A stretch of 64,000 nt of DNA from an uncultured Amnibacterium sp. (lineage in GTDB: Bacteria; Actinomycetota; Actinomycetes; Actinomycetales; Microbacteriaceae): contig NZ_CAXTOQ010000003.1 in NCBI RefSeq assembly GCF_964245895.1, positions 3,187-67,186 of the forward strand. The letters are read 5' to 3'. Both the position numbers and the translations under genes were made by a program. Under the pieces are notes generated by a model. It was not told where the DNA came from. It did not search any database and worked only from the letters and a program-made list of their open reading frames with translations. Positions 3,799 to 26,586 of this stretch are shown piece by piece. Numbering within the stretch: the stretch's first letter is position 1; the number at the start of each line of letters is the position of its first letter.

Positions 3799-4902
3799 TC
3801 AGCGGCCGCTGAACTCGACCTCGGCGATCGCGACCCGGGCGTTCGGCGGGACCATGGACTGCAGCACCGTCACGCGGACGGTCTGCACCTGGTCGACGCC
3901 GAGGTCGAGCCGCTGCGGCCCGGGCTGGTCGTCGAGGTGCATCGTCCGCACGACCGACGGCGCGCCCGACCGCTCGATCGTGACCCGCAGCTCCGTCGGC
4001 CGCCCGTTCTTCAGGAACGTCTGCTGGTCGGTCGCCGCGCCCGGCAGCACCTGGAGGACGACGAGCCGGAACGGCTTGCGGAACGAGAAGGTGAGGCTCT
4101 CCCCCGTCGCAGGCCCCGGCTGGGCGGCCTCCCACGCGATGTTCGACGCCCCGTCGTGGGCGGCCGTCGCGGGGTGCCCGCTCGCCGACCCGGACGCGGT
4201 GACCTTGCTCGGGTTGACGGCTCCGACCCCGAAGACGCGATCGACCGCCGATGCGGCGAAGGACGCCAGCGGATCGCGCAGGAGGTAGCCGCCGACCAGC
4301 AGCGCGAGCACGATCGCGACGACGACCACCACCGCGACGATGCGGCCGCCGCCGGACCGCCGGCGGAACGTGGCGGCGGCGGGCCGGGGCGCTGCGGCCG
4401 ACGGCTGGGGCGCTGCAGCGACGATCTCGGCACCGCAGGAGGTGCAGAAGTGCCGCCCCGCCGTGTTCCACGCACCGCAGGAGGCGCACCGGACACCCGT
4501 GCCGCCGCCGCTCGACCGCGCTGCCGACGGCGAGACGCCGGAGGGAGGCGCCTTCGGTGCCGCCCTCCCCGGCAGCATCGCGACCGGGTCCCCGTCCACG
4601 GCCGAGGCGGTCGCCGGCTCGTCGTCGAACGGCCACGGCGGGATCGTGATGACGGGCAGCGAGGCGGCGGGCTGCGGCGCATCGGGCTGCTGGGCCACTT
4701 CGGGTCCGGCGTCCGTCTTCGTCGCGCCCGCAGCAGGACGGGGATCCTCGGCCCGCGGCGCCGCCTTGGACGGGGCCGACCGCTGCGGCACCGCACCGGC
4801 CGGCCGTGCGCCGCCCGGCTGGTCCCACGCGAGGTAGGCGTCGCACTGCGGGCAGAAGTCGACGTCCGCGGTGACCATCGCACCGCACTCCGGGCAGGTC
4901 AC
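3799..4902 (-). CDS. CIS-associated bitopic membrane protein: two zinc ribbons, Pro/Ala linker, one TM helix, C-terminal discoidin/glycan-binding-like domain
   Basis: GTG at 4902 overlaps the upstream stop (GTGA); CPECG..CPQC and CASCG..CTSC motifs; TM IVAVVVVVAIVLALLVGGYLL; last gene of the baseplate operon. Confidence 0.7.
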   Translation of the reverse strand: MTCPECGAMVTADVDFCPQCDAYLAWDQPGGARPAGAVPQRSAPSKAAPRAEDPRPAAGATKTDAGPEVAQQPDAPQPAASLPVITIPPWPFDDEPATASAVDGDPVAMLPGRAAPKAPPSGVSPSAARSSGGGTGVRCASCGAWNTAGRHFCTSCGAEIVAAAPQPSAAAPRPAAATFRRRSGGGRIVAVVVVVAIVLALLVGGYLLRDPLASFAASAVDRVFGVGAVNPSKVTASGSASGHPATAAHDGASNIAWEAAQPGPATGESLTFSFRKPFRLVVLQVLPGAATDQQTFLKNGRPTELRVTIERSGAPSVVRTMHLDDQPGPQRLDLGVDQVQTVRVTVLQSMVPPNARVAIAEVEFSGR

Positions 4903-5456
4903 GCTGCACCGTCCGACGGGAAGCGGACGGTGAACGGCACCGACGCCGGCACGGCCGCCGCCACGACGGATCGGAGCCGCTGCTGGTACTCCGGCGCCGC
5001 GGTCTCCGGCCCCGTGACCGTGACCGTCACGCGAGCGGGACCGCCGGCGGGCGGGCGGCCGTCGGGCACGGCCGACACGGCGACCCCGCCGGTGTCCTCG
5101 ACCACGACGACCGCGTCGGCACCGGCGGCGACGCTCACAGCGAACCGCACGCCCTCGATCGTGCCACGTCCGGCGTGCATCGCAGTAGCGCGGGCGATGA
5201 GGGCACGGGTCCGATCGGCGCCCCAGCCCGCGCCGGAGTCGAACCCCACCCAGGTGCCCAGCCAGGGGAGGAAGTCCTGCGGCGTGAGCGCCGGGTCGAC
5301 GTAGGCCTCGAGCGAGTCGAGCGTCAGCAGCACCGGGGCGAGCAGCTCGTCGACGGCACCGCACAGCAGCTCGATGAAGGCGTCGTCCTGCAGCACGCCG
5401 GGCAGCCGCGTGCTGAGCGGTGTCGCGACCCCGAGCCCGTCGACCGTCCCGCGCAT
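4899..5456 (-). CDS. Phage tail protein I-like baseplate wedge protein (P2 gpI type)
   Basis: YVDPALTPQDFLPWLGTWVG and RGTIEG motifs; directly follows baseplate J. Confidence 0.85.
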   Translation of the reverse strand: MRGTVDGLGVATPLSTRLPGVLQDDAFIELLCGAVDELLAPVLLTLDSLEAYVDPALTPQDFLPWLGTWVGFDSGAGWGADRTRALIARATAMHAGRGTIEGVRFAVSVAAGADAVVVVEDTGGVAVSAVPDGRPPAGGPARVTVTVTGPETAAPEYQQRLRSVVAAAVPASVPFTVRFPSDGAA

Positions 5457-5457
5457 G

Positions 5458-7395
5458 TCAGACCGCCGCCACCACGCGCACCCGGTGCTCGAACGGGTAC
5501 ACCAGCGCGTTGGCGGCGAGCTCGATCCGGCCGGTCTGCTCCCCCCGCTTGCCCGTCACGGGATCGGCCGGGAAGAGCAGGACCTCCTCGACCAGCTCGA
5601 CGCCCGGCAGGTTCTGCAGCACCCCGAACAGCTCCCCGGCGACGAGCGGCCGCCCGAACGGCCAGCCCCGCCCCTCCGGGCCGCCGTCGACCGGGTCGAG
5701 GTAGCGGTACAGCGCGTCGGTCGCCCGGTTCGCGAGGTCGTCCGCGTCCACGCCGCCGCGGGCCGCGATCCTCGTGATGACCGTCACGCCCTGGAACCGC
5801 GGCGGCTCGACCAGCACCCGCGTGCCGACCAGCCTGCGCCGGTCGAGTCGTTCCGCGATCGCGTTCAGCAGCTCGATCGGAGGATCCAGCGACTCGAACG
5901 GGATCCTGCCGTGCTCGTCCCTGCCCGGTGCGGGGACCACCAGCAGGCGCACGAGGCCGGCGTCGGCCGGGCTCGCGGCGGGGGCGCAGCGCACCCGCGC
6001 GATGCCGGAGGCCGCGTCGCGGGCGATCGACTCGAAGTCCTCGACGGTGACGGCGCGATCCCGCGTCCGCAGCGCGACCGGGGCACGCCGCTTCGCCTCG
6101 TCGACCGTCTCCCCGGCGGTGCCGCCGTGGGCCGCGAGCCGGTTCCCCGCCCCCGAGACGAACGGGATGGTCCGGCGCAGGACCGTCAGCGTGCCGGCCG
6201 CGACGTTCCCCTCCGCGCCACCGCCGGTCCGGTAGGAGCGCACGCGCAGCGGCGCCCCCTTCGGCGGCACCGCCCCGTAGCGGCGCAGCGATCCGTCCTG
6301 CTGACGGAGGGCCGGGCCGAAGACGACCACGCCCTCGGCGCGGTCGAGCGTCACGACGCGGTCGTCCGGGCCGGCGCCCGCGAAGTCGGGGACCTCCATC
6401 CACTCGGTCCACCCGGCGCCGTCCGCGACCTCGACCACGACCGGGTCCCGGTCGGCGACCACGGGACTGCGCTGCAGCGCGAACCGCTGCCCCGGCACCC
6501 CCTCCGACAGCCCGACGACCTCCCCCGCGATGCGCTCCGCGTGCAGCGCCGCCACCCGGCCGCCGACCGTCGCCGCCGTCACGGCGGTGATGACCGGCGA
6601 CTCGCTGTAGAACGGGTACCCGGCGGGCGGCGCGACGGTCCGGCAGCGGACCCATCCGGCGCGGACGCCGGCGACCAGCGAGACGGCGTGGGAGGCGGGC
6701 AGCAGCAGGACGACGTCACCGTTCCGGTTGAGACCGCCGGTCCCGTCCTCCACCACCTCGCACGCCTCCCAGGTCGCACCGGTCCATCCCTCCCACCGGA
6801 TCGGCGGCTGCCGCGGGTCGACCCCGACGCCGCGGACCTCGCAGCCGAACCGGAACCGGACGGCGCAGTCCGGCGCGGCGCCGTCGAGGCCGAGCAGCAT
6901 CGCGTCGCCGACCTTCGGCGTCTCGGAGAACGCGGAGAAGCGACCGCCGGCCGCGCCGACGACCGGTGCACCGGCCCCGGGCGGAGCGGTGCCCGTGGCG
7001 ACCAGCTCCCGCGGCGGCATCGCCAGGTCCGCGGTGGTCGCGAAGACGATCGGCGGCGCCTCCGGCACGCGCCGCGTGCCGACCTCCGTCCCCTCCGGGA
7101 TCGTGACGACCACCTGCTGCGGCGCGGCGAGCCGGAACACGAGGTCCGCGACCGCGGCCGCCGGCGGATGCAGCTGCACGCCGATCAGGTCGAGGAAGGT
7201 CACGTACAGCCGGTCGGGCACACGGTTGAGCCGGTAGAACAGCTCGTCCACCATGAACGCGACCGTCTCGATCAGGGTGACGCCCGGGTCCGACACGTTG
7301 TGGTCGGTCCAGTCGGGCGACCGCTCCTGGACCAGCCGCTTCGCGTCGTCCACCAGGTCCTGGAACCGCCGGTCGTCGAGGTCGGGGGCCTTCAT
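5458..7395 (-). CDS. Baseplate assembly protein (baseplate J/gp47-like)
   Basis: Start MKAPDLDDRRFQDLVDDAK; WTDHNVSDPGVTLIE and RDRAVTVEDFE motifs; ATGA overlap with gp25. Confidence 0.92.
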   Translation of the reverse strand: MKAPDLDDRRFQDLVDDAKRLVQERSPDWTDHNVSDPGVTLIETVAFMVDELFYRLNRVPDRLYVTFLDLIGVQLHPPAAAVADLVFRLAAPQQVVVTIPEGTEVGTRRVPEAPPIVFATTADLAMPPRELVATGTAPPGAGAPVVGAAGGRFSAFSETPKVGDAMLLGLDGAAPDCAVRFRFGCEVRGVGVDPRQPPIRWEGWTGATWEACEVVEDGTGGLNRNGDVVLLLPASHAVSLVAGVRAGWVRCRTVAPPAGYPFYSESPVITAVTAATVGGRVAALHAERIAGEVVGLSEGVPGQRFALQRSPVVADRDPVVVEVADGAGWTEWMEVPDFAGAGPDDRVVTLDRAEGVVVFGPALRQQDGSLRRYGAVPPKGAPLRVRSYRTGGGAEGNVAAGTLTVLRRTIPFVSGAGNRLAAHGGTAGETVDEAKRRAPVALRTRDRAVTVEDFESIARDAASGIARVRCAPAASPADAGLVRLLVVPAPGRDEHGRIPFESLDPPIELLNAIAERLDRRRLVGTRVLVEPPRFQGVTVITRIAARGGVDADDLANRATDALYRYLDPVDGGPEGRGWPFGRPLVAGELFGVLQNLPGVELVEEVLLFPADPVTGKRGEQTGRIELAANALVYPFEHRVRVVAAV

Positions 7396-7802
7396 GCGGC
7401 GCCTCCTTCGTGCTGCGGGATGACGTAGAACGGGAACACGAGGTTGCGCGGGTCGTTCGTGCCGCGAAGGCGGTACCCGATCTCGATCTGCAGCACGCCC
7501 TCGTCCGCGCGGTCGAAGAGGACCCGCACGTCCTCGAGCTCGATCCGCACCTCCCAGCGCTCCAGCGCGAGCCGCACCGCGTGCGCCATGTCCCCGGCCG
7601 TCGCCTGGTTCGCGGGGGCGAACACGTACCGGTGGATCGCGCAGCCGAACTCGGGCCGCATCGGCCGCTCCCCCGGCGCCGTCGAGAGGATCAGGCGGAT
7701 GCTCTCCATGATCTCCCGGTCGCCGGTCGACAGCTGCACCCCGCCGGTCGGCGACATCCGGACCGGGAACGACCACCCCGCGCCGACGAAGTCCGCGGCC
7801 AT
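7392..7802 (-). CDS. GPW/gp25 baseplate protein
   Basis: Start MAADFVGAGWSFP; ILSTAPGERPMRPEFGC and WEVRI motifs. Confidence 0.92.
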   Translation of the reverse strand: MAADFVGAGWSFPVRMSPTGGVQLSTGDREIMESIRLILSTAPGERPMRPEFGCAIHRYVFAPANQATAGDMAHAVRLALERWEVRIELEDVRVLFDRADEGVLQIEIGYRLRGTNDPRNLVFPFYVIPQHEGGAA

Positions 7803-9625
7803 CAGTTGATCCTCACCGTGGCGCCGCGCACGGTCGTGACCCCCGACGCGGAGAGCTCGGCGGAGGCGGTGCCCGCGACCTTGACCGACGCCGCCGACGC
7901 CTCCAGCTGCGACGTCGCCGTGATCTTCACCGACGCGGCCTTCACCGAGAGGTCGGTTGTCGCCTCGATCGACACCGACGTCCCCTTGAGGGCGACCGCG
8001 CCGCGCGCGGTCACCGACGCGTCGCCTCCCGCGGTCACCTGGACCGGTCCCCCGGCGGTGACCTGGATGCTCTGGTCGCCCTTCTGGGTGATCCGCAGCT
8101 CCTGGCCGTCCGAGGTCGTGACCTTGACGCACTCCGCGCCCTGGTCCTCGTCGAACTCGACCGTCATCCCCGTGCGGGACGTGAACGACCGCCGTACGAC
8201 CTCCCCGCCGCGGACGTGCTGCCCGGGACGCGGATCGCCGCTCGGCACGATGCCGCCCAGCACCACCGGGCGGTCGATGTCCCCGTGCTCGAAGACGACG
8301 AGGACCAGGTCCCCGACCTCGGGCAGCGCCATCGCGCCGCGAGCGCTCGCCGCACCGGCCTGCACGACCGGGCACCACCGGCTGACGTAGTCGTCCGACG
8401 ACTCGGGCAGGGCGACCCGCACCCGTCCGGCGTTCCCGGGGTCGTCGATGTCGCTCACGATCCCGACGACCGGCGCCCAGCCCTCGCCCGGGGACCGCAG
8501 GGTCCCCGGCACCGCCCCGCCGGAGGTCCGCGCGGCGAGGCCGAACAGGGACCGGTCGTCCTCCCCGCTCACCACCACCTCGGTCGTGTACGCGTGACCG
8601 GGCAGGAAGCGGTGGACCACCTCGCTGACGGTGTGCCTGCCGTCGAAGGGGGCACCGAACCCGGACACGGCGACCGCGCAGCCCGCTCGCAGGGAGGCGT
8701 TGCCCCGCACCTCGGCCCGCACCTCCGCGATCGCCGCGCCGACCCGCTCGGCGTACGCGCGGGCCGCGGCGTCCACCGCGGAGGGCTGGTCCCGCACCGG
8801 TGCCGCGATGACGAGCCGCGGCGCCCCGGCCGCGGAGGCGGCGCGGGCCGGGTCCATCCCGTCGACGAGGACGGCGGCGCTGCCCGCGGAGGCCCGGCCG
8901 ACAACGACCCTCGCCTCCTGCGGGTCCCAGCCCCGCACCTCCACGTCGGGCACCTGGTGCGCATCGGTGACCGTCGCCTGGAACCGCAGCACGTTCACCC
9001 CCTGCTCGAGCACCAGCGGGTCGCTCGACGCGGTCGCCCCCGCCGCCGGAGCGGAGGACGCCGCATCGGGCCGGGCGAAGTGGAGGGTGCCGTCGCGCCA
9101 GAACAGCGCCGCCCCCGTCATCGCGGCGAGATCGGTGAGGAACCGCCAGTCCGCGACGCCCGCCTGCGACAGGTGCTCGACGACCGGCCCCTCCACCGAG
9201 ACGACCACGTCCACCCCCGCTCGGCCGGCGACGCGGCGCACGATGTCGCCGACGGTGCAGTCCAGGTAGGCCTCGAAGCGCGCGCCGCGCTGCAGCCGGT
9301 GACCGCGGTGCAGTCCCCGCACGACCGTGCAGAGCGCGCCCACCTCGACCTCCCGCTCGAGCGCGGTCACCTCGGCCTCGAGCAGCGGCTTCGGCGCCGG
9401 CGTCCGGTTCGAGGTGACCGAGAGGCGCACCTTCGCGCCCAGCCGGAACCCGGCCCGCGCGAGCAGCGTGCCGGTCGCGTCGCTGAACCGCAGGAAGAAG
9501 CCGTCCGGCAGCCCGAGCCCCGAGGTGACGGCGCCGCCGAGCACCGTCGCGGCGTCGCGGTCGGACAGCGGGGTGCCGTCGACCTCGATCACCAGCTCGC
9601 TCGCGGTGTCGTCACCGAGCGGCAC
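7802..9625 (-). CDS. vgrG: VgrG-like spike (gp27/gp5 OB-fold, beta-helix C-terminus) without C-terminal effector extension
   Basis: DDPGNAGRVRV and LPEVGDLVLVVFEHGDIDRPVVLG motifs; ends GATVRIN. Confidence 0.9.
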   Translation of the reverse strand: MPLGDDTASELVIEVDGTPLSDRDAATVLGGAVTSGLGLPDGFFLRFSDATGTLLARAGFRLGAKVRLSVTSNRTPAPKPLLEAEVTALEREVEVGALCTVVRGLHRGHRLQRGARFEAYLDCTVGDIVRRVAGRAGVDVVVSVEGPVVEHLSQAGVADWRFLTDLAAMTGAALFWRDGTLHFARPDAASSAPAAGATASSDPLVLEQGVNVLRFQATVTDAHQVPDVEVRGWDPQEARVVVGRASAGSAAVLVDGMDPARAASAAGAPRLVIAAPVRDQPSAVDAAARAYAERVGAAIAEVRAEVRGNASLRAGCAVAVSGFGAPFDGRHTVSEVVHRFLPGHAYTTEVVVSGEDDRSLFGLAARTSGGAVPGTLRSPGEGWAPVVGIVSDIDDPGNAGRVRVALPESSDDYVSRWCPVVQAGAASARGAMALPEVGDLVLVVFEHGDIDRPVVLGGIVPSGDPRPGQHVRGGEVVRRSFTSRTGMTVEFDEDQGAECVKVTTSDGQELRITQKGDQSIQVTAGGPVQVTAGGDASVTARGAVALKGTSVSIEATTDLSVKAASVKITATSQLEASAASVKVAGTASAELSASGVTTVRGATVRIN

Positions 9626-10355
9626 GGCGCACCTCCCGCTCGACCGCGGCGCGGCGGGCGCCGTCGATCAGCTCGACCGCCGCAGGGAGGAAGATCGGCG
9701 TGCCGCTCGGGATGCGCTGCGGGTCGTCGATGCCGTTCACCTCGGCGAGCCGCCGCCACAGCGCGGGGTCGCCGTACTCCGACCAGGCCAGCGCGGCGAG
9801 GCCGTCGCCCGCGTCGAACACGTGGACCCGCTTCGGCAGCAGCCCGCCGGACGTCGGGTTCTGCTTCGCCGTCTCCCCCGCGATCTCCTCGAGGTTCACC
9901 GTGCAGACCGCGCGCAGCGGCATCCCGCTCGGGGAGAAGAGGGTGTACTTCGCCGAGACGGACCGGACGAACGCGTGGAAGCCCGTCAGCTCCCCCCACC
10001 GGAACATCACCCAGGGCGCCGAGCTCGCCGCCTTCCCCCGGGTGTCGCTGGTCGGGACGCAGCACTCGAACAGCGCGTCGACGCTGTCCTTCACCGCCGA
10101 GCCCGGCTTGTCGCTGGTGTCGAAGAACATCTCCAGCGTGAGCTTCCCGGGCTCCGGTCCGGTGTACTGCGGCGGTCCGCTCGACTTCGCCCGCTTCGTC
10201 TTGTGGTGCTCCCAGTGGGCGGACTTCGTGAACGTGATCTCCTTCGGGTTGAACTGGAAGGTGATCTGCTTGCGCTCGGGACCCGGCGCGTCCAGCGAGT
10301 CCTTCCCCGGCTCGAAGACCCGCAGGTAGGCCTTCTCGAGCCCCTCGACGGCCAC
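9612..10355 (-). CDS. CIS tube initiator / LysM-domain baseplate protein
   Basis: ITFQFNPKEI, PWVMFRWG, NPTSGG motifs and C-terminal LysM-like EYGDPALWRRLAEVNGIDDP. Confidence 0.88.
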   Translation of the reverse strand: MAVEGLEKAYLRVFEPGKDSLDAPGPERKQITFQFNPKEITFTKSAHWEHHKTKRAKSSGPPQYTGPEPGKLTLEMFFDTSDKPGSAVKDSVDALFECCVPTSDTRGKAASSAPWVMFRWGELTGFHAFVRSVSAKYTLFSPSGMPLRAVCTVNLEEIAGETAKQNPTSGGLLPKRVHVFDAGDGLAALAWSEYGDPALWRRLAEVNGIDDPQRIPSGTPIFLPAAVELIDGARRAAVEREVRRAAR

Positions 10356-10359: not shown

Positions 10360-10794
10360 TCAGCCCCTGCTCGCGGTCACGCCGTGGTGCGCGATCTCGA
10401 GGGTCTCGGTCACGACCTTCGGGGAGTCGTTCGTCAACGACGGCCCGGTCCAGCGGACCGGGACCACCCCGTCCAGCGACCACACCACGACGGTCCTGCC
10501 CGCCGCGGTCATGGCGGAGATCGTGCCCGTGCCGCGGCGGTAGCCGGACATCAGCTTCGACATCCAGGTGACCACCGCGGCGCTCTCCGCACCCAGCGGC
10601 CGCGTGAGCTTGACGTTCGGGAACTTCAGCCGGGTCGGCAGCTGCCAGACGAAGCCGTTGTTCCCGCCCTCCTCCCGCGTCTCGAGCACGACCTCGATCC
10701 CCAGCCCCTCGCAGGAGGAGAAGGTGCCCAGGTCCGCCTCGTCGAGCTTGACGAGGTACCGCACGCTGACGGCGGTATCGGTGTCCTCGAGCAT
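10360..10794 (-). CDS. Phage tail tube protein 2 (T4 gp19-like)
   Basis: CEGLGIEV..REEGGNN, LPTRLKFPNVKLTR, VPVRWTGP, ETLEIAHHG motifs. Confidence 0.88.
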   Translation of the reverse strand: MLEDTDTAVSVRYLVKLDEADLGTFSSCEGLGIEVVLETREEGGNNGFVWQLPTRLKFPNVKLTRPLGAESAAVVTWMSKLMSGYRRGTGTISAMTAAGRTVVVWSLDGVVPVRWTGPSLTNDSPKVVTETLEIAHHGVTASRG

Positions 10795-12649: not shown

Positions 12650-12808
12650 TCAGCCGCCTTCCGCGGAGCGACGGTTCAGCTCCGAGATCGCCTCGACGTA
12701 GCGCAGCCGCTCGCGGTGCTCCAGGTCCAGGATGTCGTCGAGCGGCCAGTGGAAGTGGTAGGCGATGTACGCGACCTCCTCGCGGATGCGGTCGGTCGCG
12801 TACGTCAC
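12650..12808 (-). CDS. DUF6760-like small protein (resembles gpT/gpE' chaperone extension)
   Basis: VTYATDRIREEVAYIAYHFHWPLDDILDLEHRERLRYVEAISELN; lies in the -1 frame, overlapping the upstream stop by GTGA. Confidence 0.85.
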   Translation of the reverse strand: MTYATDRIREEVAYIAYHFHWPLDDILDLEHRERLRYVEAISELNRRSAEGG

Positions 12809-12817
12809 GATTCCCCC
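12767..12817 (-). promoter_or_regulatory. Candidate programmed -1 ribosomal frameshift signal: GGGGGAA slippery heptamer plus downstream stem-loop
   Basis: mRNA reads CTG GGG GAA TCG TGA; heptamer at 12817-12811, 7-nt spacer, perfect stem GTACGCGACC (12803-12794) / GGTCGCGTAC (12776-12767). Confidence 0.6.
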
Positions 12818-15421: not shown

Positions 15422-15454
15422 AGGTCTGTCGGTGGGTGGTGGTGTGATGGCCGT

Positions 15455-16779: not shown

Positions 16780-16844
16780 CGACCGGTGCGGGAATCGGCT
16801 CCCTTGGCGCGCACGGGCCTTGCGTTGAGACGATGACCGCGTCG

Positions 16845-18113: not shown

Positions 18114-18194
18114 GGCAGTGATCCCCTCCGCTCGACGCCAGCGGCTTACAGATGCGAGAGCGCTCCGCCGATCCACGCCTCAACGCAGAGCGGC

Positions 18195-18875
18195 TCACCC
18201 CTTCGCCCCCGGGTCCTCCTGCATCGCGCGGTCGGCCGACGCCACCGCGGCGCGCTCGAACCGGTCGCCCGGATCGCTGACGCTGACGCCGTCGCCCGTC
18301 GGGGTCCCGTCGACGGGACCGGAGCGCTGCTGGACCACGTGGGTCAGCTCGTGCGCGAGCGTGTGGCGGCCCTGATCGGAGGAGGGGTCGTACCGGCCGT
18401 TCTGGAAGACGACGTCGGATCCGACCGTGTAGGCGCTCGCCCCGACGGACGTCGCCGACTCGTGAGCGTCCGCGCCCGTGTGCACGCGCACGTCCCCGAA
18501 GTCGGAACCGAGCCGCCGCTCCATGTCGCCACGCACCGGCGAAGGCAGCGGCGATCCGCTGCCGCTCCGCAGCAGGCTGAGGACGGGCGACTCCTCCTCC
18601 CGCTGCACCGCCTCGGGCGAGCCGCTGTCGCTCCGGAGGCGGCTCATCTGCAGCTCCTCCTCCTCTTCCGGCTGCTCCTCCCGCTGCACGACCTCGGCGG
18701 TCGCCGCGTTGCCGACGGCGCGCTGCAGGGCGAGCACACCGTGCGGGCTCACATGTCCGGCGGCCGCGAGCTGCAGCGCCTCCGCCGCCTGGGCGGTGGA
18801 CGCGCCGGTCCTGGAGGGCCGGCCGAGCTCCTCCGCCGACTCCCGCTCGTCGCGGTGCTGCCGCTCCATCGCCAT
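18195..18875 (-). CDS. DUF4157 (eCIS core domain) protein, HExxH motif, no C-terminal toxin domain
   Basis: GSPLPSPVRGDMERRLGSDFGDVRVHTG..AYTVGSDVVF..LAHELTHVVQQ; start MAMERQ. Confidence 0.9.
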   Translation of the reverse strand: MAMERQHRDERESAEELGRPSRTGASTAQAAEALQLAAAGHVSPHGVLALQRAVGNAATAEVVQREEQPEEEEELQMSRLRSDSGSPEAVQREEESPVLSLLRSGSGSPLPSPVRGDMERRLGSDFGDVRVHTGADAHESATSVGASAYTVGSDVVFQNGRYDPSSDQGRHTLAHELTHVVQQRSGPVDGTPTGDGVSVSDPGDRFERAAVASADRAMQEDPGAKG

Positions 18876-18892: not shown

Positions 18893-20989
18893 TCAGCCCT
18901 GCGCCGCGAGTCCGCTCGAGGGCCGCTCCGGCGCGATCAGATCCCAGTATCGACCGAACTCGCCCTCCAGCGTCAGGCGGCCGAGCTTGCGGTACTCGCG
19001 CTGCACCCCGCCGATCAGGTGCCGCATCGCGACGGGCTCGTCGCCGGCCGCTGCGAGGTACGCGCTCGTGACCGCGGCGGAGCGGATGGCCCCTCCCGAC
19101 AGCTCGAAGGACGCGCCGAGGAACGTCAGATCCAAGTCGTCGCCGCGGGGCACGCCGCGGGCGAGCGAGATGTCCCACAGGCGCGAGCGGTGCGCCGCGT
19201 CGGGCATCGGGAAGTCGATGAGCACGTCCAGTCTGCGGAGGAACGCGTCGTCGATGTTCGCCCGCAGGTTCGTCGCCAGGATCGCGAGTCCGTCGAACGA
19301 CTCGATCCGCTGCAGCAGGTAGGCGCTCTCGATGTTCGCGTACCGGTCGTGGGCGTCCTTCACGTCGCTGCGCTTGCCGAACACCGAGTCCGCCTCGTCG
19401 AACAGCAGCACCGCGTTCGTCCGATCCGCCGCGGTGAAGATTCGGTCGAGGTTCTTCTCCGTCTCGCCGATGTACTTGTCGACGACCGACGCCAGATCGA
19501 TGACGTACAGGTCCAGCTCGAGCTGCCGCGCGACCACCTCCGCCGCCATCGTCTTGCCGGTGCCCGAGTCGCCGGCGAACAGGGCGACGACCCCGTGCCC
19601 GCGCCCACCGCCCGGCCGCATCCGCCAGTCGCCGAGCACCCGTTCCCGGTACCGGGCCCGGATCTCGAGCTCGTGCAGCGCGGACAGCGCCGTCGCCGGC
19701 AGCACCAGGTCGTCCCAGCCGACCGCGGGCTGGACCCGCCGGGCGAGCCGGTCCATCGCCGCGCCGTTCTGCGCCCGCGCGCCGGCGGCGAGGTGCGCCT
19801 CCGTCACGACCCCCTGCTCGGACGCGGCCGCCTGCCGCACCGCGGACCGCGCCGCCATCCGGATCTGGCCCGGATCGAGCCGGAACTGGGCGGTCGCGGC
19901 GCCCACCGGCAGGTCCCCGGCGGATCCGCCGAGCTCCTGCTGCCACAGCGTCGTCCGGTCCGCCGCGCCGGCGTCGACGCCGTCGACGACCAGCACCGGA
20001 TCACGGACCCAGTCCGGGTCCCACGGGCCGTGCCCGACGAAGACGGTCGGCAGGTCGCCGGCGCAGAGCGCCTGCAGGCAGAGCTCCTGCAACACGGCCG
20101 GGTCGGGAGCGGGCACGGGATGCGCGACGAGCCCGCGACCGGAGAGCAGGGCCTCGCGGGCGACGATCCGCGCGGTCCGCCTGGCCTCCTCCCGGGTGCC
20201 CGTCGACATCGCCGCCAGGTCGACCGTGAGCGCGCCGAAGCCCGCCTGCCCCAGCGCGGTGGCCGCGAGCCCGACGGAGGAGGAGAGCGACGACTCGCGC
20301 AGGTAGAGCAGCCGCGCGCCCGCCCGCACCGCCCGCACCACCGCCGTCGTGCTGCCCCAGGCGATCGCCGGCTCCTCGGTCAGCGCCGGCGTCGCCGCCG
20401 GGTCCGGGGCGTTGTCGCCCAGGAGGTGCGCGACCACCCGATCCGGCACGGTCAGCGCCCGGCTCGGCAGCGGCCGATCCGCGTCGTCCACGGTCAGCAG
20501 CAGGCCTGTCACGAGCGGCCCGTGGAGCAGGCGCCCGCGCGCGGAGGCGGAGGCGAGCGACGCGCCGGCGAGCTCGAGCGCCAGCCCGATCGAGGGCCGC
20601 CGGCGGGTGACGTCGTCGTTCAGGTAGCCGAACAGGGGCTCGAAGCGCGGATCGAGGTCGGCCGCGAGCGCGATGAGCAGCAGCTCGACGTCCAGCGCGC
20701 CGAGGTGGAACCGCCGGGTCAGATCGCGCAGCCGCAGGCGCTCCCCCGCCGCCTCCGCCTCGTCCGCGCGCCGCTCGCAGTCCTGCAGCATCGGCTGCAC
20801 CGCGGAGGCCGGACTCGTGCCGCGCTCGCCCGCCAGCAGCCGGTCGGCCATCGCGTCCGTGATGTACAGGCCCCGGAACGGGTCGTCCGGCTGAGGATCC
20901 GACGCCCGACGCGACGCGATCAGCCGCCGCACCCGGTCCTCCACGACGCCGACCCGGGCGAGGAGGTGCGTGGTGCTCGCGTCGCTCAT
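18893..20989 (-). CDS. CIS AAA+ ATPase (Afp15/Pvc15-like)
   Basis: Start MSDASTTHLLAR; Walker A GDSGTGKT, VVDKYIGETEKNL, Walker B LLFDEAD, ATNLRANIDDAFLRR. Confidence 0.93.
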   Translation of the reverse strand: MSDASTTHLLARVGVVEDRVRRLIASRRASDPQPDDPFRGLYITDAMADRLLAGERGTSPASAVQPMLQDCERRADEAEAAGERLRLRDLTRRFHLGALDVELLLIALAADLDPRFEPLFGYLNDDVTRRRPSIGLALELAGASLASASARGRLLHGPLVTGLLLTVDDADRPLPSRALTVPDRVVAHLLGDNAPDPAATPALTEEPAIAWGSTTAVVRAVRAGARLLYLRESSLSSSVGLAATALGQAGFGALTVDLAAMSTGTREEARRTARIVAREALLSGRGLVAHPVPAPDPAVLQELCLQALCAGDLPTVFVGHGPWDPDWVRDPVLVVDGVDAGAADRTTLWQQELGGSAGDLPVGAATAQFRLDPGQIRMAARSAVRQAAASEQGVVTEAHLAAGARAQNGAAMDRLARRVQPAVGWDDLVLPATALSALHELEIRARYRERVLGDWRMRPGGGRGHGVVALFAGDSGTGKTMAAEVVARQLELDLYVIDLASVVDKYIGETEKNLDRIFTAADRTNAVLLFDEADSVFGKRSDVKDAHDRYANIESAYLLQRIESFDGLAILATNLRANIDDAFLRRLDVLIDFPMPDAAHRSRLWDISLARGVPRGDDLDLTFLGASFELSGGAIRSAAVTSAYLAAAGDEPVAMRHLIGGVQREYRKLGRLTLEGEFGRYWDLIAPERPSSGLAAQG

Positions 20990-21603
20990 CTCGCCCGCCG
21001 TACGGGTCGTTCGAGTCGTTCGACGACGGACCCGTCGAAGGTCCGGATCTCGGGAACGGGCCGGCTCAGGACCGGCGGTCCGAGCGCGAGGGCGACGTCG
21101 GCGAGCGCCGGCGCGATGACGACGAGGTCCAGCGACGGCTTCAGCTCGCCGCCGAGCGACGACCAGACGTCGGCGAAGGCGCGGTCCTCGGGAGGCGGCA
21201 GCGCGATGCTCACCGGCACCGGGCTGGCGATGTCCGCGAGCGACCCGGTCAGGGTCTCGGGCGGCAGCGCGTCCAGCCGGTCGAACGAGGTCAGCATCCG
21301 GTCGAGCAGGCGGTGCTCGTCCTCCGGCCGCTGCACCCACGCGGTGAGCAGGTAGGACAGCTTGAAGTAGCGGGCCGGTCGGCTCCTCGTGCGGACCGTG
21401 CCGTCGTCGCTGCGCCGCTCGACGACGCCGTTCTCCCGCCGGCGGACGTCCTCGCGGATGTCGTAGAGGAACGCGTCGATGGTCGGGCCGCTCCGTCGCG
21501 CCGCCCAGTCCGTCGTCGGCGCATCGAAGGCCAGCTCGACCTCGCCGTGACCGAGGACGGCCCCCAGCACCTGCTTGATGGACTCGTCGACCTCCGTGAT
21601 CAC
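20986..21603 (-). CDS. DUF4255 (Pvc16/Afp16-like tail terminator) protein
   Basis: AFDAPTTDWAARRSGPTIDAFLYDIRED, YLLTAW..PEDEHRLL, GELKPSLDLV motifs. Confidence 0.9.
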   Translation of the reverse strand: MITEVDESIKQVLGAVLGHGEVELAFDAPTTDWAARRSGPTIDAFLYDIREDVRRRENGVVERRSDDGTVRTRSRPARYFKLSYLLTAWVQRPEDEHRLLDRMLTSFDRLDALPPETLTGSLADIASPVPVSIALPPPEDRAFADVWSSLGGELKPSLDLVVIAPALADVALALGPPVLSRPVPEIRTFDGSVVERLERPVRRAR

Positions 21604-21610: not shown

Positions 21611-22435
21611 TCACCCTCCCCCGGACGAGCCCGGCACGACGAGCAGGGGGGCCCGCGCCGTCGTCGGCGTCGGTGCGGCCGCGCCGTCGGTCCCGCCCGC
21701 GACGAGCAGCGTCCTCGGCCCGAGGGGGTCGAACTGCAGGATCGGGAAGGAGGCGTCGATCACCCCGCCGACCGCGCGGAACGGGCCGACGGGCGCGACG
21801 CCCTGACTCCACGACAGCCGGTAGTCGCCGTCCGTCGGCAGGCCGCTCACCACGACGCGGACGACCCCGCCCGGTGCCACCACCTCGGGCGAGTAGGTCA
21901 CGGCGAACCCGGGGCCGACCGACAGCACCGCGGTCTCGGTGGGCCCGACGTCGACCGCGGGCGAGAACTCGGCCTCGTCCGCGTCCCGGTGCTCGGTGAT
22001 CGCGGCCTGGACCTCGGCGTCCGCGGAGCCGGCCGCGACGTCGACGGAGAAGGTGACGGTCGAGACCAGGCCCGGCTCGCCGCGCAGCAGGCACACCCCC
22101 TCCGCCACGTCGGTGCACCCCGTGAGCGCCCCCGGGACGACGGTCGCGCCACCGGTGCCGGTGAGGTCGACGCCCACCCCCTCCTCCGCGACCGAGAGGG
22201 GCAGGGCCGGATCGACCGGCACCGCCGCGGTCCCGTCCGCCTGCGGCCGGTCGACGGTGAGGGTGACCGTCACCGTGCCGCCCGCGGCCGGGGTCGGCGC
22301 GTCGCGCGACAGGGTGAGCCGGTAGGGGGTGCCCCCGCCGACCGCAGCCGGGACCGCGGGGGCGCGTGGGGCCGGGGCGGCTGCGATCACCGGGACCAGC
22401 AGCAGCGCAGCCGCGGCGACCGCCCGGATGTGCAC
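21611..22435 (-). CDS. Putative secreted protein with Ig-like beta domains
   Basis: Signal-peptide-like start MHIRAVAAAALLLVPVIAA; Val/Thr/Gly-rich beta strands; ends PLLVVPGS; leads the DUF4255-ATPase run. Confidence 0.55.
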   Translation of the reverse strand: MHIRAVAAAALLLVPVIAAAPAPRAPAVPAAVGGGTPYRLTLSRDAPTPAAGGTVTVTLTVDRPQADGTAAVPVDPALPLSVAEEGVGVDLTGTGGATVVPGALTGCTDVAEGVCLLRGEPGLVSTVTFSVDVAAGSADAEVQAAITEHRDADEAEFSPAVDVGPTETAVLSVGPGFAVTYSPEVVAPGGVVRVVVSGLPTDGDYRLSWSQGVAPVGPFRAVGGVIDASFPILQFDPLGPRTLLVAGGTDGAAAPTPTTARAPLLVVPGSSGGG

Positions 22436-22532: not shown

Positions 22533-23162
22533 TCAGATCAGGCCCTCGCGCAGCGCGAACGCGACGGCGTGCGACCGGTTGCGCAGCTGCAGCCTCGTCG
22601 TCACGTCGTGCAGCACGTTCTTCACGGTCCGTTCGGAGTACGCGAGCTTCGCCGCGATCTCGCCCGTGTCGTAGCCGTCGGCCACCAGGCGCAGGACGTC
22701 GATCTCGCGCGGCGCGAGCTTCCGCATGCCGAGCCCGGTCGGGTCGAGCAGGGTGCGCTGCAGCCGACCGACCTGCCCGAGCAGCCGCCCCAGCAGGTCG
22801 GGCGGCAGGCTCCCCTCCCCGGCGGCCGCCGCCCGGATGCAGGCGACGAGGCGATCCGAGCTCGCCTCGCTGCGGCGCAGCACCCCCACGACGCCGCACT
22901 CGATCGCGATGATCAGGTCCTCGTCGTGGAGGGTGGTGCAGACGAGCACGACCCGGCTCTCCGCGGTCCGCTGCAGGGAGCGGAGGCGGGTCACCGTCGC
23001 CTCGTCCAGGGTGTCGGTCACGACCAGCACGACGACCGCGGCGTCGTCGGCCTGGTCCAGCCGGATCTCGGAGCGGTGCCGCAGCTGGGATCGGACCCCC
23101 GCTTCGGAGATCGGGTCGGTCGCCTGCACGGCGACGCTCGGGCGGTACGCGGTGGTCAGCAT
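22533..23162 (-). CDS. LuxR/NarL-type regulator with atypical receiver-like N-terminus
   Basis: Start MLTTAYRPS; LAPREIDVLRLVADGYDTGEIAAKLAYSERTVKNVLH..NRSHAVAFALREGLI. Confidence 0.9.
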   Translation of the reverse strand: MLTTAYRPSVAVQATDPISEAGVRSQLRHRSEIRLDQADDAAVVVLVVTDTLDEATVTRLRSLQRTAESRVVLVCTTLHDEDLIIAIECGVVGVLRRSEASSDRLVACIRAAAAGEGSLPPDLLGRLLGQVGRLQRTLLDPTGLGMRKLAPREIDVLRLVADGYDTGEIAAKLAYSERTVKNVLHDVTTRLQLRNRSHAVAFALREGLI

Positions 23163-23306: not shown

Positions 23307-24563
23307 GTGACAGCCGCGACGATCACGCCCGCGTCGATCGACGTCACGCCCGGGCTCGTCGCCGTCGCGACCATCGCGATCGTGAACGACGGCTCCGTCG
23401 TCGAGGCCTACACGCTGACGGTGCTCGGCCAGTGCGCGGCCTGGACGACCCTCGCGCCGCAGACGGTCTCGGTCTACCCGGGCGAGACCGGCTCGGTGAC
23501 GGTCACCATCACGCCGCCCCGCAAGCCCGCGCCGCAGGCAGGCAGGATCCCCTTCGCCGTGCGGGTGCTGCCGGCCGAGCACCCCGAGTCGGCGACCGTC
23601 CCCGAGGCCGCGGTGGTCGTCGCGCCGGTCGCCGAGACGATCCTGGAGCTCCTGCCGCGGATGTCCACCGGCACGATGCGGCCGGACGTGCGGCTCGGCA
23701 TCGAGAACCGCGGCAACGCTGTGCAGCGGGTCGTGATCACGGGAAAGCCGCAGACGGACGGCATCACCGCGGCGCCCTTGCAGCCCGAGGTCCAGCTGGC
23801 ACCTGGCGGTATGACGTTCGTCGACCTCGACATCCGCGCGGTCAAGCGGGTGTGGCGCGGCGCGCCGATGATCCACCCGTTCTCGGTGACGGTCGAGCCG
23901 GACGGCGGCCAGATCGCCGCGGTGGATGGGACCTTCCGGCAGAACCCGGTGCTCCCGTCGTGGTTCGGGAAGGCGGTCGTCGCGACGATCGTCGCGATCG
24001 GCGCGCTCGTCGCGCTCTGGTTCGCGCTGCTCAAACCGCAGGTCGAGTCCGCGGCCGTCGCGGCGGTCGACCAGCCGCTCGCCTCCGCCAACACCGCCGC
24101 GCAGCAGGCGCAGCAGAACTCGAACCAGGCGCTGCAGGCCGTCGGGCAGACTCCCTCCCCCCTCCCCGGCCAGCTCGCCGGCAAGCCGACCGTGAGCACC
24201 CCGACCTCGCTTCGCCTGCAGATCGACGTGCCGACCGGTCAGACCAGGACGAGCGATCCCTACACGGTCGCACCCGACGCGACGCTGTCGATCACGGACG
24301 TGATCCTGCAGAACCGCCAGGGGGACGCGGGCGTGCTTGACATCCGCGTGAACGAGCAGATCGTGCTCACGTTCGGGACGGAGAACTACCGCGATCTCGA
24401 CCTGCACTTCTCGACCCCGATCCAGGTCGCCTCGGGCGAGAAGCTCACGATCGACCAGACCTGCCGCGCACCCGGGCAGCCGCCGGCGCTCGATCCCCCT
24501 CCCGACTCCTGCGACGTGAGCGCGCTGTTCTCCGGCACGACGGTCGCGCCGGTGCAGGGCTGA
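23307..24563 (+). CDS. CIS-associated membrane protein: N-terminal Ig-like (COG1470-like) domains, one TM helix, C-terminal beta domain
   Basis: GTG start VTAATITP; NDGSVVEAY..W..LAPQTVSVYPG, IPFAVRVLP, ENRGN motifs; TM WFGKAVVATIVAIGALVALWFALL. Confidence 0.75.
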   Translation: MTAATITPASIDVTPGLVAVATIAIVNDGSVVEAYTLTVLGQCAAWTTLAPQTVSVYPGETGSVTVTITPPRKPAPQAGRIPFAVRVLPAEHPESATVPEAAVVVAPVAETILELLPRMSTGTMRPDVRLGIENRGNAVQRVVITGKPQTDGITAAPLQPEVQLAPGGMTFVDLDIRAVKRVWRGAPMIHPFSVTVEPDGGQIAAVDGTFRQNPVLPSWFGKAVVATIVAIGALVALWFALLKPQVESAAVAAVDQPLASANTAAQQAQQNSNQALQAVGQTPSPLPGQLAGKPTVSTPTSLRLQIDVPTGQTRTSDPYTVAPDATLSITDVILQNRQGDAGVLDIRVNEQIVLTFGTENYRDLDLHFSTPIQVASGEKLTIDQTCRAPGQPPALDPPPDSCDVSALFSGTTVAPVQG

Positions 24564-24564: not shown

Positions 24565-24879
24565 ATGCCGGCGGGCCCCGCGCTGCGCGCCGGCGACATG
24601 GCGATGTGCCCGATGGTCGACGGGGTCACACCGCACGTCGGCGGCGCGGTGACGCCGGCGACGACCGTGCCGACGGTCCTGATCGGCGGGACCCCCGCCG
24701 CCGTGTCGGGCATCCCGGCGGGGATCGTGTGCGCCTCCCCCGCGCCGAACGGGATCGCGATGGGCAGCGTGACCGTGCTGATCGGCGGCATGCCCGCGGC
24801 GCGCGTCGGCGACCTGTCGATGCACGGCGTCCCGATCACGCCCGGGCCCGGGTGCCCGACCGTGATCATCGGAGGATGA
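24565..24879 (+). CDS. PAAR-domain spike tip protein
   Basis: ALRAGD..CP..PH, VLIGGTPAA, VLIGGMPAARVGD, GCPTVIIGG. Confidence 0.9.
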   Translation: MPAGPALRAGDMAMCPMVDGVTPHVGGAVTPATTVPTVLIGGTPAAVSGIPAGIVCASPAPNGIAMGSVTVLIGGMPAARVGDLSMHGVPITPGPGCPTVIIGG

Positions 24880-25044
24880 GCGCCGGCCGCTCGGGCCGCC
24901 GCTCGGCGCGCCTGCCCGAAGGGGCAGGCGGGGTCGCGCGCCCCCGATGCGGAGGCTATGTTCCGACCGTGTCCGCTGCGCGATCCGCGCCCGGGGGTGC
25001 CGCCCCGCTCCTCGGCGTGAGCGATCGTACGGAAGGGCCGGCCG

Positions 25045-26586
25045 ATGGCCGCCGCTGAGACGGGGGACCGCGCCGACACGGCCCTGCGCGCGCTCGAGCG
25101 GGGCAGGTCGAGCGCCGGGGACGCGATCGGCCGGGACCCGGCGCTCGCTCGCCGCGTGCTGGAGGAGCAGCTGCCGCAGGACCTCGCCGCGGTGTCCGTG
25201 CTCGTCGCCGCGGTCCGCGACGGCGTGCCGGACCGGTTGGCCGAGGACCTGCCCGGTCAGCCCGCCGACCCCGTGCTGGCGCGGCTCGCCGACTCGCTCA
25301 CCACGCGCGAGTCGCTCGCTCCCGAACGGGCCAGATGGGCGGTCGCGGTCTGGGCGGTCGCGCTCGGGCTCGCGACGGCCGCGCCTCGCACCGCCACGGC
25401 CACGACGGCGGTGCAGGCGGCCGCGCCCGTCCGGCGCGATCCCTCGCCGCCGACCGCGCCGGTGCCGCCGCCGCGCGACGACCGGGGCGCCGTGCCTCCG
25501 GGACGCCGGCGCAGGCGCTCCTTCGTGCCGCTGATCATCGCGGGCGGCGTCGTCCTGGCCGTGATCGTCGTGGGAGGCGGGCTGCTGGTGCTGCGGCCGA
25601 CCGTCGCGCCGGCCTCGGTCGCGAAGCCGGTCAGGCCGTCGGCCGGCGGCTCGGCCACGCCGACCCCGACCCCGACTCCCCTGCCGGCGATCGTCGTCGC
25701 CGCCCACCGAGGGGGCGGCGAGCTCTACCCGCTCGAGACCGCGGAGGCGATGCTCGACGCGGCGAGACGGCCCGGTGTCGCCGTCGAGACCGACATGCGG
25801 TTCACCTCCGACGGCGTCCCGGTGCTCGTCCACGACCAGACCACCCCCGCGTACATGCCCTGCACCGGAGGGGTCTCCCGGCCGGTGATCGCGACCAAGA
25901 CCTACACGTGGCTGAGCGCCAACTGCCGCACGCTCGCATCGGCATCGCCGTCAGGTGGGCAGTACACGATTCCGAGGGTCGAGGACGTGGCGCGCCAGCT
26001 CTCCGCCATCGCCGGCGCGCAGTGGCTCCTCGAGATCAAGACGACCCTGACCCCGACGCAGGAGACCCGTCTCTTCGACATCCTCGCGAAGTACAAGATG
26101 GTCGACCGCACCGTGCTCACCTCCTTCTTCGCGCCCGAGATCGCGAAGGCGAGGGCCGAGTCGACGCGTCGCGGGCACGACATCCGGCTGATGCAGTTCG
26201 TGCAGAACACGGCGATGAGCGGGCAGAAGGCGGCGAACGACGGGTTGTGGGCGGTCGGCGTGCAGAGCCCCGCGGTCACCAAGGACTACGTCTCGGCGCT
26301 GCACGGTGAGGGCGTGAAGGCGGTCGTGTGGACGCCGAACACCCCGGCCGAGTGGCAGCGCGCCGAGACCGCGGGCGCCGATCTGGTGATCACCGACAAG
26401 CCCACCGCCTGGCTGACCTGGGAGGCCTCGGATCGCAAGTCGGCTCCCGCGGTCGCCAAGCCGCGCGCCGTGGTCCCCCGACCGGTCACGAGCAGGCCGG
26501 CCGTGGCGTCGCCGTCGGCATCGCCGTCGCCGTCCGCGGTGCTCACGCCGGTTCCGACTCCCACCCCGAGCCCGGCCGAGGGCTGA
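25045..26586 (+). CDS. Membrane-anchored glycerophosphodiester phosphodiesterase with unnamed N-terminal helical domain
   Basis: AHRGG..YPLET, ETDMRFTSDGVPVLVHD, LLEIK, VVWTPN, VITDKP; TM LIIAGGVVLAVIVVGGGLLVL; N-terminal domain ends ARWAVAVWAVALG. Confidence 0.85.
   Translation: MAAAETGDRADTALRALERGRSSAGDAIGRDPALARRVLEEQLPQDLAAVSVLVAAVRDGVPDRLAEDLPGQPADPVLARLADSLTTRESLAPERARWAVAVWAVALGLATAAPRTATATTAVQAAAPVRRDPSPPTAPVPPPRDDRGAVPPGRRRRRSFVPLIIAGGVVLAVIVVGGGLLVLRPTVAPASVAKPVRPSAGGSATPTPTPTPLPAIVVAAHRGGGELYPLETAEAMLDAARRPGVAVETDMRFTSDGVPVLVHDQTTPAYMPCTGGVSRPVIATKTYTWLSANCRTLASASPSGGQYTIPRVEDVARQLSAIAGAQWLLEIKTTLTPTQETRLFDILAKYKMVDRTVLTSFFAPEIAKARAESTRRGHDIRLMQFVQNTAMSGQKAANDGLWAVGVQSPAVTKDYVSALHGEGVKAVVWTPNTPAEWQRAETAGADLVITDKPTAWLTWEASDRKSAPAVAKPRAVVPRPVTSRPAVASPSASPSPSAVLTPVPTPTPSPAEG

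Follow-up and report, generated by a model that had tools for sequence, protein, structure and literature searches.

A contractile injection system of the Streptomyces type, with a putative CisA homolog, in an uncultured Amnibacterium species

All experiments on class IId contractile injection systems (CISs) have come from mycelial Streptomyces, where a dying hyphal compartment can be understood as part of development. What, then, would be the purpose of such a machine in a single-celled rod, where its firing kills the whole organism? The question is raised by a complete, apparently CisA-bearing system in a 64,000-nucleotide stretch of DNA (hereafter, the window) from an uncultured Amnibacterium sp., a genus of soil or plant bacteria described as short, non-mycelial rods. 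An earlier prediction made from this sequence (the original prediction) had noted a near-complete Streptomyces-type CIS with its own cargo and had suggested that its role may be unexplored. Our analysis places the locus, with a confidence close to certainty, among the chromosomal CISs of subtype IId, and leads us to lean towards a cytoplasmic, producer-killing mode of action.

Given the G+C content of the window (72–77%), plain lists of open reading frames (ORFs) are mostly noise, and genes were instead called by third-position G+C (GC3) and frame plots. The proteins were named by Pfam and NCBIfam profile scans, with PHROG, PDB, and BFVD searches for selected ones. Positions 3799–24879 hold all parts of the machine: a sheath, two tubes, a LysM tube initiator, VgrG, gp25, baseplate J, and P2-I, together with a Pvc16/DUF4255 cap, an AAA ATPase, DUF4157, and PAAR. 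Every part listed in the original prediction was thereby recovered with its frame intact (no stops or frameshifts in ~20 structural and accessory genes), although a LuxR regulator (22533–23162) and a split DUF222-HNH gene (15455–16779) had been overlooked. GC3 lies at 0.84–0.99 across the CIS genes scored, and codon usage is host-like. The structural operon runs from 15232 to 3799 on the minus strand with gaps of 0–30 nt or overlaps between its genes, a second arm on the same strand extends from 23162 to 16845 (LuxR/GerE regulator, 274-aa gene, Pvc16 cap, AAA ATPase, DUF4157, and helical protein), and a plus-strand unit diverges from the latter (Ig-TM protein, with immunoglobulin (Ig)-like domains and a transmembrane (TM) helix, PAAR, and a membrane-anchored glycerophosphodiester phosphodiesterase (GDPD)). 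These strands and spacings agree with the three transcription units originally proposed. In the order of transcription, the structural operon and the core genes of the second arm comprise:

13691–15232 (−), contractile sheath Cis2: Pfam sheath domains; PDB 8bky/9gtp, E 4e-192
13218–13661 (−), inner tube (tube 1) Cis1a: Pfam Phage_T4_gp19, E 2e-27
12805–13218 (−), 137-aa chaperone-like gene: 54–80% identity in all loci compared
12650–12808/12859 (−), DUF6760 small protein, 52 aa from GTG 12808, or 69 aa: Pfam, E 2e-11
10805–12646 (−), 613-aa Pro/Ala-rich gene in the tape-measure slot
10360–10794 (−), tube 2 Cis1b: Pfam Phage_T4_gp19, E 3e-27
9612–10355 (−), LysM-type tube initiator Cis7 (Afp7-like): Pfam CIS_tube, E 7e-25
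7802–9625 (−), VgrG-like spike Cis8: Pfam Phage_base_V and Phage_GPD; PDB 9gtr_q, E 3e-67
7392–7802 (−), gp25-like sheath initiator Cis9: frame plot and translation; best PDB match 9gtp_V, E 2e-52
5458–7395 (−), baseplate J Cis11: TIGR02243, E 5e-144; sole PDB match 9gtp_1K, E 3e-219
4899–5456 (−), Tail_P2_I baseplate wedge Cis12: Pfam, E 7e-12; sole PDB match 9gtp_E, E 1e-31
3799–4902 (−), CisA-like gene, last in the structural operon: Pfam Zn_ribbon and NADase_transloc; NCBIfam NADase_discoid, E 2e-21
20986–21603 (−), cap/tail terminator Cis16 (Pvc16_N, formerly DUF4255): Pfam, E 6e-36; PDB 9gts_0A, E 3e-51
18893–20989 (−), AAA ATPase with a winged-helix domain, Cis15: Pfam WHD and AAA; ATGA overlap with the cap gene

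For each structural protein, the best PDB match is a chain of the Streptomyces coelicolor CIS by tens of orders of magnitude, including the baseplate and cap entries 9GTP, 9GTR, and 9GTS. The ranking for the sheath is typical, with 8bky/9gtp (4e-192) followed by the next unrelated entry (8.5e-108), Pvc2 (5e-55), and T4 gp18 (8e-15). No record matched the sheath in an exact-sequence search. Taking one genome per species, we compared 80 loci by tblastn with the window proteins and found the same genes in the same order in Agromyces, Microbacterium, Kribbella, Humibacillus, Nocardia, Actinomadura, ~50 Streptomyces, and some Chloroflexota; the synteny across Microbacteriaceae that the original prediction had proposed to check thus extends to Agromyces, Microbacterium, and uncultured Microbacteriaceae loci. 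In a tree of 85 sheaths, these three and the window form one clade (100% SH-aLRT), with the window sheath as the long-branch sister of the Agromyces/Microbacterium group, followed outward by Intrasporangiaceae, by Propionibacteriales with Chloroflexota, and by Streptomyces and allies. The window sheath therefore lies within the actinobacterial class IId radiation that holds Streptomyces, not with phages or a prophage, and no head genes occur nearby in the window. The core set (cis1a, cis1b, cis2, cis7, cis8, cis9, cis11, cis12, cis15, and cis16) is complete and in the typical order. As the Streptomyces systems have been assigned to dbeCIS subtype IId (PMC10066040, PMC12237407), the locus is, close to certainly by sequence comparison, a chromosomal CIS of subtype IId of extracellular CISs (eCISs), of the CIS-Sc/SLP type. 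The likeness to the cytoplasmic CIS of Streptomyces, as first proposed, holds in the PDB matches, in the gene order of the ~50 Streptomyces loci, and in homologs of CisA and of the Sco4256-58 type.

What the locus lacks is equally characteristic. Pfam and NCBIfam matched no capsid or head, terminase, portal, integrase, holin/endolysin, or fiber families anywhere in the 64 kb, nor the type VI secretion parts TssJLM, ClpV, or the two-part TssBC sheath, in place of which there is a single-gene sheath; the corresponding absences in the original prediction were correct. Scans that also included PHROG matched no Afp13 tail fiber, typical Afp14 tape measure, or ClpV in the same 64 kb. Genome-wide, there is one sheath locus and one DUF4157 gene.

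The slot of the tail fiber is instead occupied by the membrane-anchored CisA-like protein, whose gene overlaps that of P2-I by GTGA. Two zinc ribbons, a Pro-rich linker, and a single TM helix (aa 188–206) are predicted in this protein, together with an external, sugar-binding discoidin-like domain. The CisA of S. coelicolor (Sco4242) is a bitopic membrane protein in which a TM segment is combined with a C-terminal domain that binds sugar; its gene takes the place of the tail-fiber gene (PMC10066040, PMC12237407), and the protein is needed for contraction and cell death (PMC12237407). Homologs lie directly 3′ of P2-I in two Agromyces species, Microbacterium sp. SS28, and Streptomyces sp. BP-8; that of BP-8 shares the same architecture and aligns (BLASTP E 5e-17) from the second ribbon through the TM helix to the final residue. 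Because of its position, its architecture, and its homology to the BP-8 protein, we read the product of 3799–4902 as a CisA homolog. No CisA match was found in the Agromyces bauzanensis locus. The Microbacterium sp. SS28 homolog carries one in-frame TGA (loci L013 and L091).

A second membrane protein that recalls the Streptomyces systems is encoded in the divergent plus-strand unit, which comprises three genes:

23307–24563 (+), Ig-TM protein, 418 aa (same as in the record): two cytoplasmic Ig/PapD-like domains, a TM helix, and an external beta-sandwich
24565–24879 (+), PAAR spike tip Cis10: Pfam PAAR_motif, E 2e-13
25045–26586 (+), GDPD: Pfam, E 2e-22; TM helix at aa 164–182

The Ig-TM protein matches a protein of the Streptomyces sp. 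BP-8 cluster (BLASTP E 3e-43) over its N-terminal 247 aa and TM helix; past this helix the similarity stops, and the BP-8 counterpart ends in a ricin lectin. In a PDB fold search, the AlphaFold2 (AF2) model of the Ig-TM protein (pLDDT 79) returned only generic Ig/PapD-like folds and nothing informative for the C-terminal domain. With a common N-terminus, one TM helix, and a variable C-terminal domain, the protein appears to be of the Sco4256-58 type. These putative effectors are needed for cell death in S. coelicolor, and their loss empties the tube lumen (PMC10066040). A longer reading of the gene, as a single Ig protein of 678–744 aa (22329/22527–24563), was rejected as its first ~260 residues are the antisense of the LuxR gene by frame plot, and tblastn matches to that stretch in Agromyces and Humibacillus are antisense echoes.

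In A. bauzanensis, PAAR likewise neighbors the Ig-TM gene and is encoded on the other strand from the cap-ATPase arm; in Kribbella, Humibacillus, and Nocardia its place is between vgrG and gp25. In the GDPD, ~160 cytoplasmic residues at the N-terminus precede a single TM helix, which is followed by an external catalytic domain with a Pro/Ser/Thr-rich tail. The protein is a candidate accessory enzyme or PAAR-linked effector, for which glycerophosphodiesters, teichoic acid, and phospholipid head groups are possible substrates. The order Ig-TM, PAAR, GDPD is kept in four metagenome contigs of near relatives; no GDPD was found by tblastn in the more distant loci.

The cargo slot lies between the cap-ATPase genes and the sheath, and contains the following:

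18195–18875 (−), stand-alone DUF4157/eCIS_core protein (Sle2-like adaptor): Pfam eCIS_core, E 2e-33
16845–18113/18176 (−), candidate helical cargo directly 3′ of the DUF4157 gene, 422 aa (record start 18113) or 443 aa
15455–16288 and 16285–16779 (+), DUF222 and HNH endonuclease in two frames, between the sheath and the cargo: Pfam DUF222 and HNH

The helical cargo combines an LQKQAGNQA leader, an 85-residue helix, and a hydrophobic segment in an all-alpha fold predicted by AF2. Only 11 homologs were found among 5.8 billion proteins, three of which align over a DUF4157 region (two with Pfam PF13699, one with part of the domain). Compared with tape-measure proteins, it gave no PHROG match and, with a model of modest confidence, no BFVD fold match at E ≤ 0.001, the tape measure of a Gordonia phage reaching only E 0.32. 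The G+C content falls to 0.68 over 16001–18000, where the helical cargo is encoded, vs. 0.72–0.76 in the flanking CIS genes, which is consistent with recent import of the cassette.

That this slot is exchangeable is best seen in a 13-kb metagenome contig (L099), which aligns with the window at 86% from PAAR to DUF4157 and at 93% from the sheath promoter to DUF6760, the sheath being at least 90% identical. Between these segments, the slot (15363–18210 in the window, 6650–9870 in the contig) has been swapped wholesale, a ~900-aa effector replacing both the helical cargo and the HNH element. At the level of sequence this is a clean cassette swap between close relatives, and it bears out the cargo of its own that had been ascribed to the window. 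Repeats flanking the cassette are short and chance-like. The region from DUF4157 to the sheath also differs in every Agromyces, Microbacterium, and uncultured Microbacteriaceae locus, holding either no cargo or ~0.6–4.2 kb.

The cargo of other loci has features of its own. The effector of L099 carries a LLGLQSAAGNRA leader, a hydrophobic segment, and an HETRH motif. In Microbacterium sp. SS28 (L013 6551–9856; L091), the cargo is 1101 aa long with a weak C-terminal likeness (E 3.5e-4) to contact-dependent inhibition (CDI) toxin nucleases, and in Streptomyces sp. BP-8 (L041 8119–9930), DUF4157 is fused to a weak Endonuclea_NS_2 match (E 5e-5, below the Pfam cut-off).

The DUF222-HNH gene, whose frame changes at ATGA 16285–16288, has three paralogs elsewhere in the genome at 67–70% nucleotide identity (contigs C43, C28, and C8). 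It may be a mobile, homing-type element, an insert like that of a selfish element rather than a part of the CIS; a link to cassette exchange is speculation.

Based on these components, a mode of action can be proposed by homology to the Streptomyces systems. The sheath, tube, baseplate, and cap would assemble free in the cytoplasm with the assistance of the AAA ATPase, and loading into or onto the tube or spike would fall to the DUF4157 adaptor, which would act on the helical, membrane-active cargo next to it and perhaps also on the Ig-TM protein. Under envelope or other stress, the baseplate protein Cis11 would meet the cytoplasmic part of the bitopic CisA, the sheath would then contract against the producer's own membrane, and the cargo would damage the envelope, such that the producing cell dies or lyses. 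We regard such a cytoplasmic, CisA-triggered, producer-killing CIS in Amnibacterium as somewhat probable. It is favored by the CisA homolog in the fiber position, the lack of fiber and lysis genes, the protein of the Sco4256-58 type, and the pairing of DUF4157 with a helical protein as in Sle2/Sle1. In a unicellular rod, the outcome would not be a developmental step of hyphae but altruistic death or the liberation of the cell's contents.

A more far-reaching form of this proposal, which we put forward only tentatively and hold to be rather doubtful, is that of a cell-autonomous suicide device (abortive-infection-like or a stress-triggered altruistic lysis) in a non-mycelial rod, whose membrane-directed cargo (the helical protein, Ig-TM protein, and GDPD) is swapped between close relatives and whose cytoplasmic mode is ancestral to class IId. 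If true, the cytoplasmic mode would be the ancestral function of class IId and not a developmental specialty of Streptomyces.

A number of points weigh against a cytoplasmic, self-directed mode. The CisA homolog is only 32% identical to its BP-8 counterpart over 234 residues, and the reference in this comparison is a BP-8 protein at the CisA position, not Sco4242 itself. The AF2 model of the helical cargo is of middling confidence (pLDDT 65), and the apparent kinship of this protein to Sle1 is one of layout alone. Even in Streptomyces, proteins of the Sco4256-58 type may act either as cargo or as membrane partners. A PAAR tip and DUF4157-linked cargo are also typical of extracellular systems.

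Some of these points lend themselves to a classical extracellular CIS, released by the lysis of some cells, which would bind a bacterium, fungus, protist, or plant-associated eukaryote and inject its DUF4157-linked cargo. The PAAR-tipped VgrG spike, the DUF4157 adaptor, and the swappable cargo slot are hallmarks of toxin delivery by eCISs, the GDPD beside PAAR could be a lipid-directed effector, and subtype IId was first catalogued as 'extracellular' (PMC6899500). However, the window encodes neither a tail fiber or receptor-binding protein, with the CisA homolog in the fiber slot, nor a holin or endolysin for release in the 64 kb. As the nearest studied relatives also remain cytoplasmic (PMC10066040, PMC10286715), we consider an extracellular mode unlikely, while still the strongest of the competing explanations.

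The genomic setting of the cluster bears on a further possibility, that of a silent or decaying horizontal acquisition, unexpressed or no longer assembling. GyrB of the genome is 93% identical to those of Amnibacterium kyonggiense and A. soli (~80% for Leifsonia, Agromyces, and Curtobacterium), and the right half of the window is syntenic with both of these other Amnibacterium species at 73–84% nucleotide identity; the Microbacteriaceae-like host originally supposed is thus confirmed to the genus and, given this synteny, the contig belongs to the Amnibacterium genome and is not a binning error. Synteny with the congeners begins at ~32,960, exactly at a tRNA-Ser(GGA) gene (32967–33054, minus strand). 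To the left of this gene, including 3.2 kb before the window, there is no counterpart in the two congeners, which places the CIS within a species-specific segment of at least 36 kb that abuts the tRNA 3′ end, a length that is a lower bound as the far end lies beyond the contig end. No repeat of the tRNA-Ser 3′ end marking the far border, and no integrase, was seen in the assembled left part. A sheath was detected in 6 of 201 sampled Microbacteriaceae genomes, neither congener among them, and a close sheath in 40 of the 400 genomes sampled across the order of the host, concentrated in four families. The cluster was probably gained, or retained solely in this species, as part of a variable segment by tRNA-Ser.

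This rarity, the position in a species-specific segment beside a tRNA, and the selfish HNH element inserted between two CIS operons would all fit a silent acquisition. Against it, the frame of every structural and accessory gene is open, codon usage resembles that of the host, and the HNH insert lies between genes, not inside one. Near relatives with sheaths at least 90% identical occur in several soil metagenomes and keep the same genes with open frames at 86–93% nucleotide identity, suggesting purifying selection, and we therefore judge a silent or decaying cluster to be improbable.

A tail module of a defective prophage or an R-type tailocin (bacteriocin) can be excluded for practical purposes since, although the sheath, tube, gp25, J, and P2-I families are common to myophage tails, there are no head, terminase, portal, integrase, lysis, or fiber genes within the 64 kb (whose left flank ends at the contig end), the Pvc16 cap, AAA ATPase, and DUF4157 are the marks of a CIS, and the sheath groups with class IId (phage sheaths match at ~1e-15 vs. 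4e-192 for the Streptomyces CIS sheath).

Certain genes of the structural operon required closer inspection. The gp25 gene occupies its own frame within a longer spurious ORF; a 772-aa 'baseplate J' ORF was rejected, as the frame plot resolves it into gp25 and J in separate frames. While Pfam alone shows only CIS_tube in Cis7, the protein aligns with 9gtp_P, a 'LysM domain-containing protein' (E 2e-59), with its C-terminus covered. The 613-aa Pro/Ala-rich protein gave no Pfam, NCBIfam, or PHROG match; a gene-sized gap of 2.2–3.2 kb is found at the same position in all 12 of the related loci with coordinates. The 137-aa protein matches a PHROG tail assembly chaperone weakly (E 0.008). DUF6760 is kept in all loci compared by tblastn, and its GTG start at 12808 shares 4 nt with the end of the 137-aa gene, including the stop codon (GTGA, 12805–12808). 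Gene calls on two metagenome contigs (L099 and L100) agree, with the same GTGA overlap and a 52-aa DUF6760 product. A programmed frameshift between the two genes was rejected, a start/stop overlap with translational coupling being the simpler account.

Regulators stand at both edges of the locus, and one further accessory gene precedes the cap gene:

22533–23162 (−), LuxR/GerE regulator, 209 aa, first gene of the cap-ATPase-cargo arm: frame plot; Pfam GerE, E 2e-12
21611–22435 (−), 274-aa protein: GC3 frame plot; hydrophobic, signal-peptide-like N-terminus
1324–3795 (+), large AAA and BTAD regulator of the Streptomyces antibiotic regulatory protein (SARP) type, convergent with the end of the structural operon: BTAD, E 3e-13; Trans_reg_C

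The LuxR/GerE gene is also called in loci L099 and L102–L104. The 274-aa, putatively exported protein has homologs of 271–273 aa at the same position in near relatives, and none was found by tblastn in more distant loci. Homologs of the BTAD regulator (46% identity over the C-terminal ~200–230 residues) follow P2-I in A. bauzanensis and in an uncultured Microbacteriaceae locus, and we infer that this regulator controls the CIS.

Ordinary chromosomal genes (those of a sugar ABC transporter, an amylase, LacI regulators, Trk, and a molybdenum dehydrogenase) fill what is left of the window, and the species-specific segment also contains the following:

231–1214 (−), AIM24 and zinc ribbon protein
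26623–27291 (−), DJ-1/PfpI protein
28411–31248 (−), large AAA_16-TPR-LuxR regulator
31243–32382 (+), HTH_66/DUF433 protein

How far is such a locus new? The suggestion that its role may be unexplored holds in that we found no experimental treatment of a CIS in Microbacteriaceae or in any unicellular actinobacterium in the literature, yet it overstated the novelty, as unicellular carriers were already catalogued. The class IId genome list (eLife 2025 supplement) includes unicellular Micrococcales, among them Cellulomonas fimi and C. flavigena, and a survey of 2022 reports a chromosomal sheath of Microbacterium. The eLife CisA genome list contains no Microbacteriaceae, and we found no paper linking CISs with Agromyces. 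The locus thus brings one more host genus into an already catalogued class; it is a further instance of a known machine and introduces no new principle. Its value lies in a candidate unicellular model and in an example of cargo-cassette exchange. Amnibacterium could offer a thin-celled model in which CisA-dependent firing is viewed by cryo-electron tomography without milling, and the exchange of cargo can be followed, as a natural experiment, in a cassette with sharp borders whose content varies among loci that are otherwise nearly identical.

Among the known systems, the most distant likeness is to Afp, PVC, and AlgoCIS, with which the window shares the sheath, tube, Afp7, Afp8, Afp9, Afp11, Afp12, Afp15, and Afp16 families and an N-terminal cargo leader of the LQRxAGNxA kind. 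It differs from them in having neither an Afp13-type fiber nor an Afp14-type tape measure, in its single sheath gene, and in far weaker matches (e.g., 5e-55 for Pvc2 and 2e-4 for Afp16). The Agromyces, Microbacterium, and uncultured Microbacteriaceae loci (L009–L016; genome records) have the nearest sheaths (64–67% identity) and the same gene order, and some of them share the PAAR and Ig-TM unit divergent from the cap arm and the CisA homolog after P2-I; unlike these, the GDPD and the 274-aa exported protein are found only in the near relatives of the window.

In the SLP system of Streptomyces lividans, with its cargo pair Sle1/Sle2 (PMC10286715; PMC13277306), the genes immediately upstream of the sheath encode, as in the window, a small stand-alone DUF4157 protein and, after it, an alpha-helical one that has a long helix at its N-terminus and contains a hydrophobic segment; relatives differ in the C-terminal part of the helical protein. 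In contrast to SLP, the cargo of the window has no sequence or fold match to tape-measure proteins, and is likened to Sle1 by layout only; its family is very small (the 11 homologs above), and the HNH element separates the pair from the sheath.

The closest comparison is with CIS-Sc, encoded by sco4242–sco4260 of S. coelicolor (PDB 8BKY/9GTP/9GTR/9GTS; PMC10066040, PMC10020575, PMC12237407). The two differ in their hosts, that of the window having a 3.6-Mb genome in a genus described as non-mycelial rods, and in protein identities of 35–60%. The putative CisA is 367 aa long in the window vs. 468 aa, and the Ig-TM protein ends in a beta-sandwich with no assigned family, not in a ricin domain. 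The window shares PAAR with S. venezuelae and not with S. coelicolor, and has it relocated to the divergent unit with the Ig-TM protein and GDPD. Common to both are the same structural proteins, the lack of a fiber, canonical tape measure, and ClpV, the LuxR and SARP-type regulators at the edges, a single-pass protein of the Sco4256-58 type, and a gene order that runs from the cap and ATPase, by way of DUF4157, to the sheath, tube, chaperone, DUF6760, long gene, tube 2, LysM, VgrG, gp25, J, P2-I, and, in the slot of the fiber, the apparent homolog of CisA.

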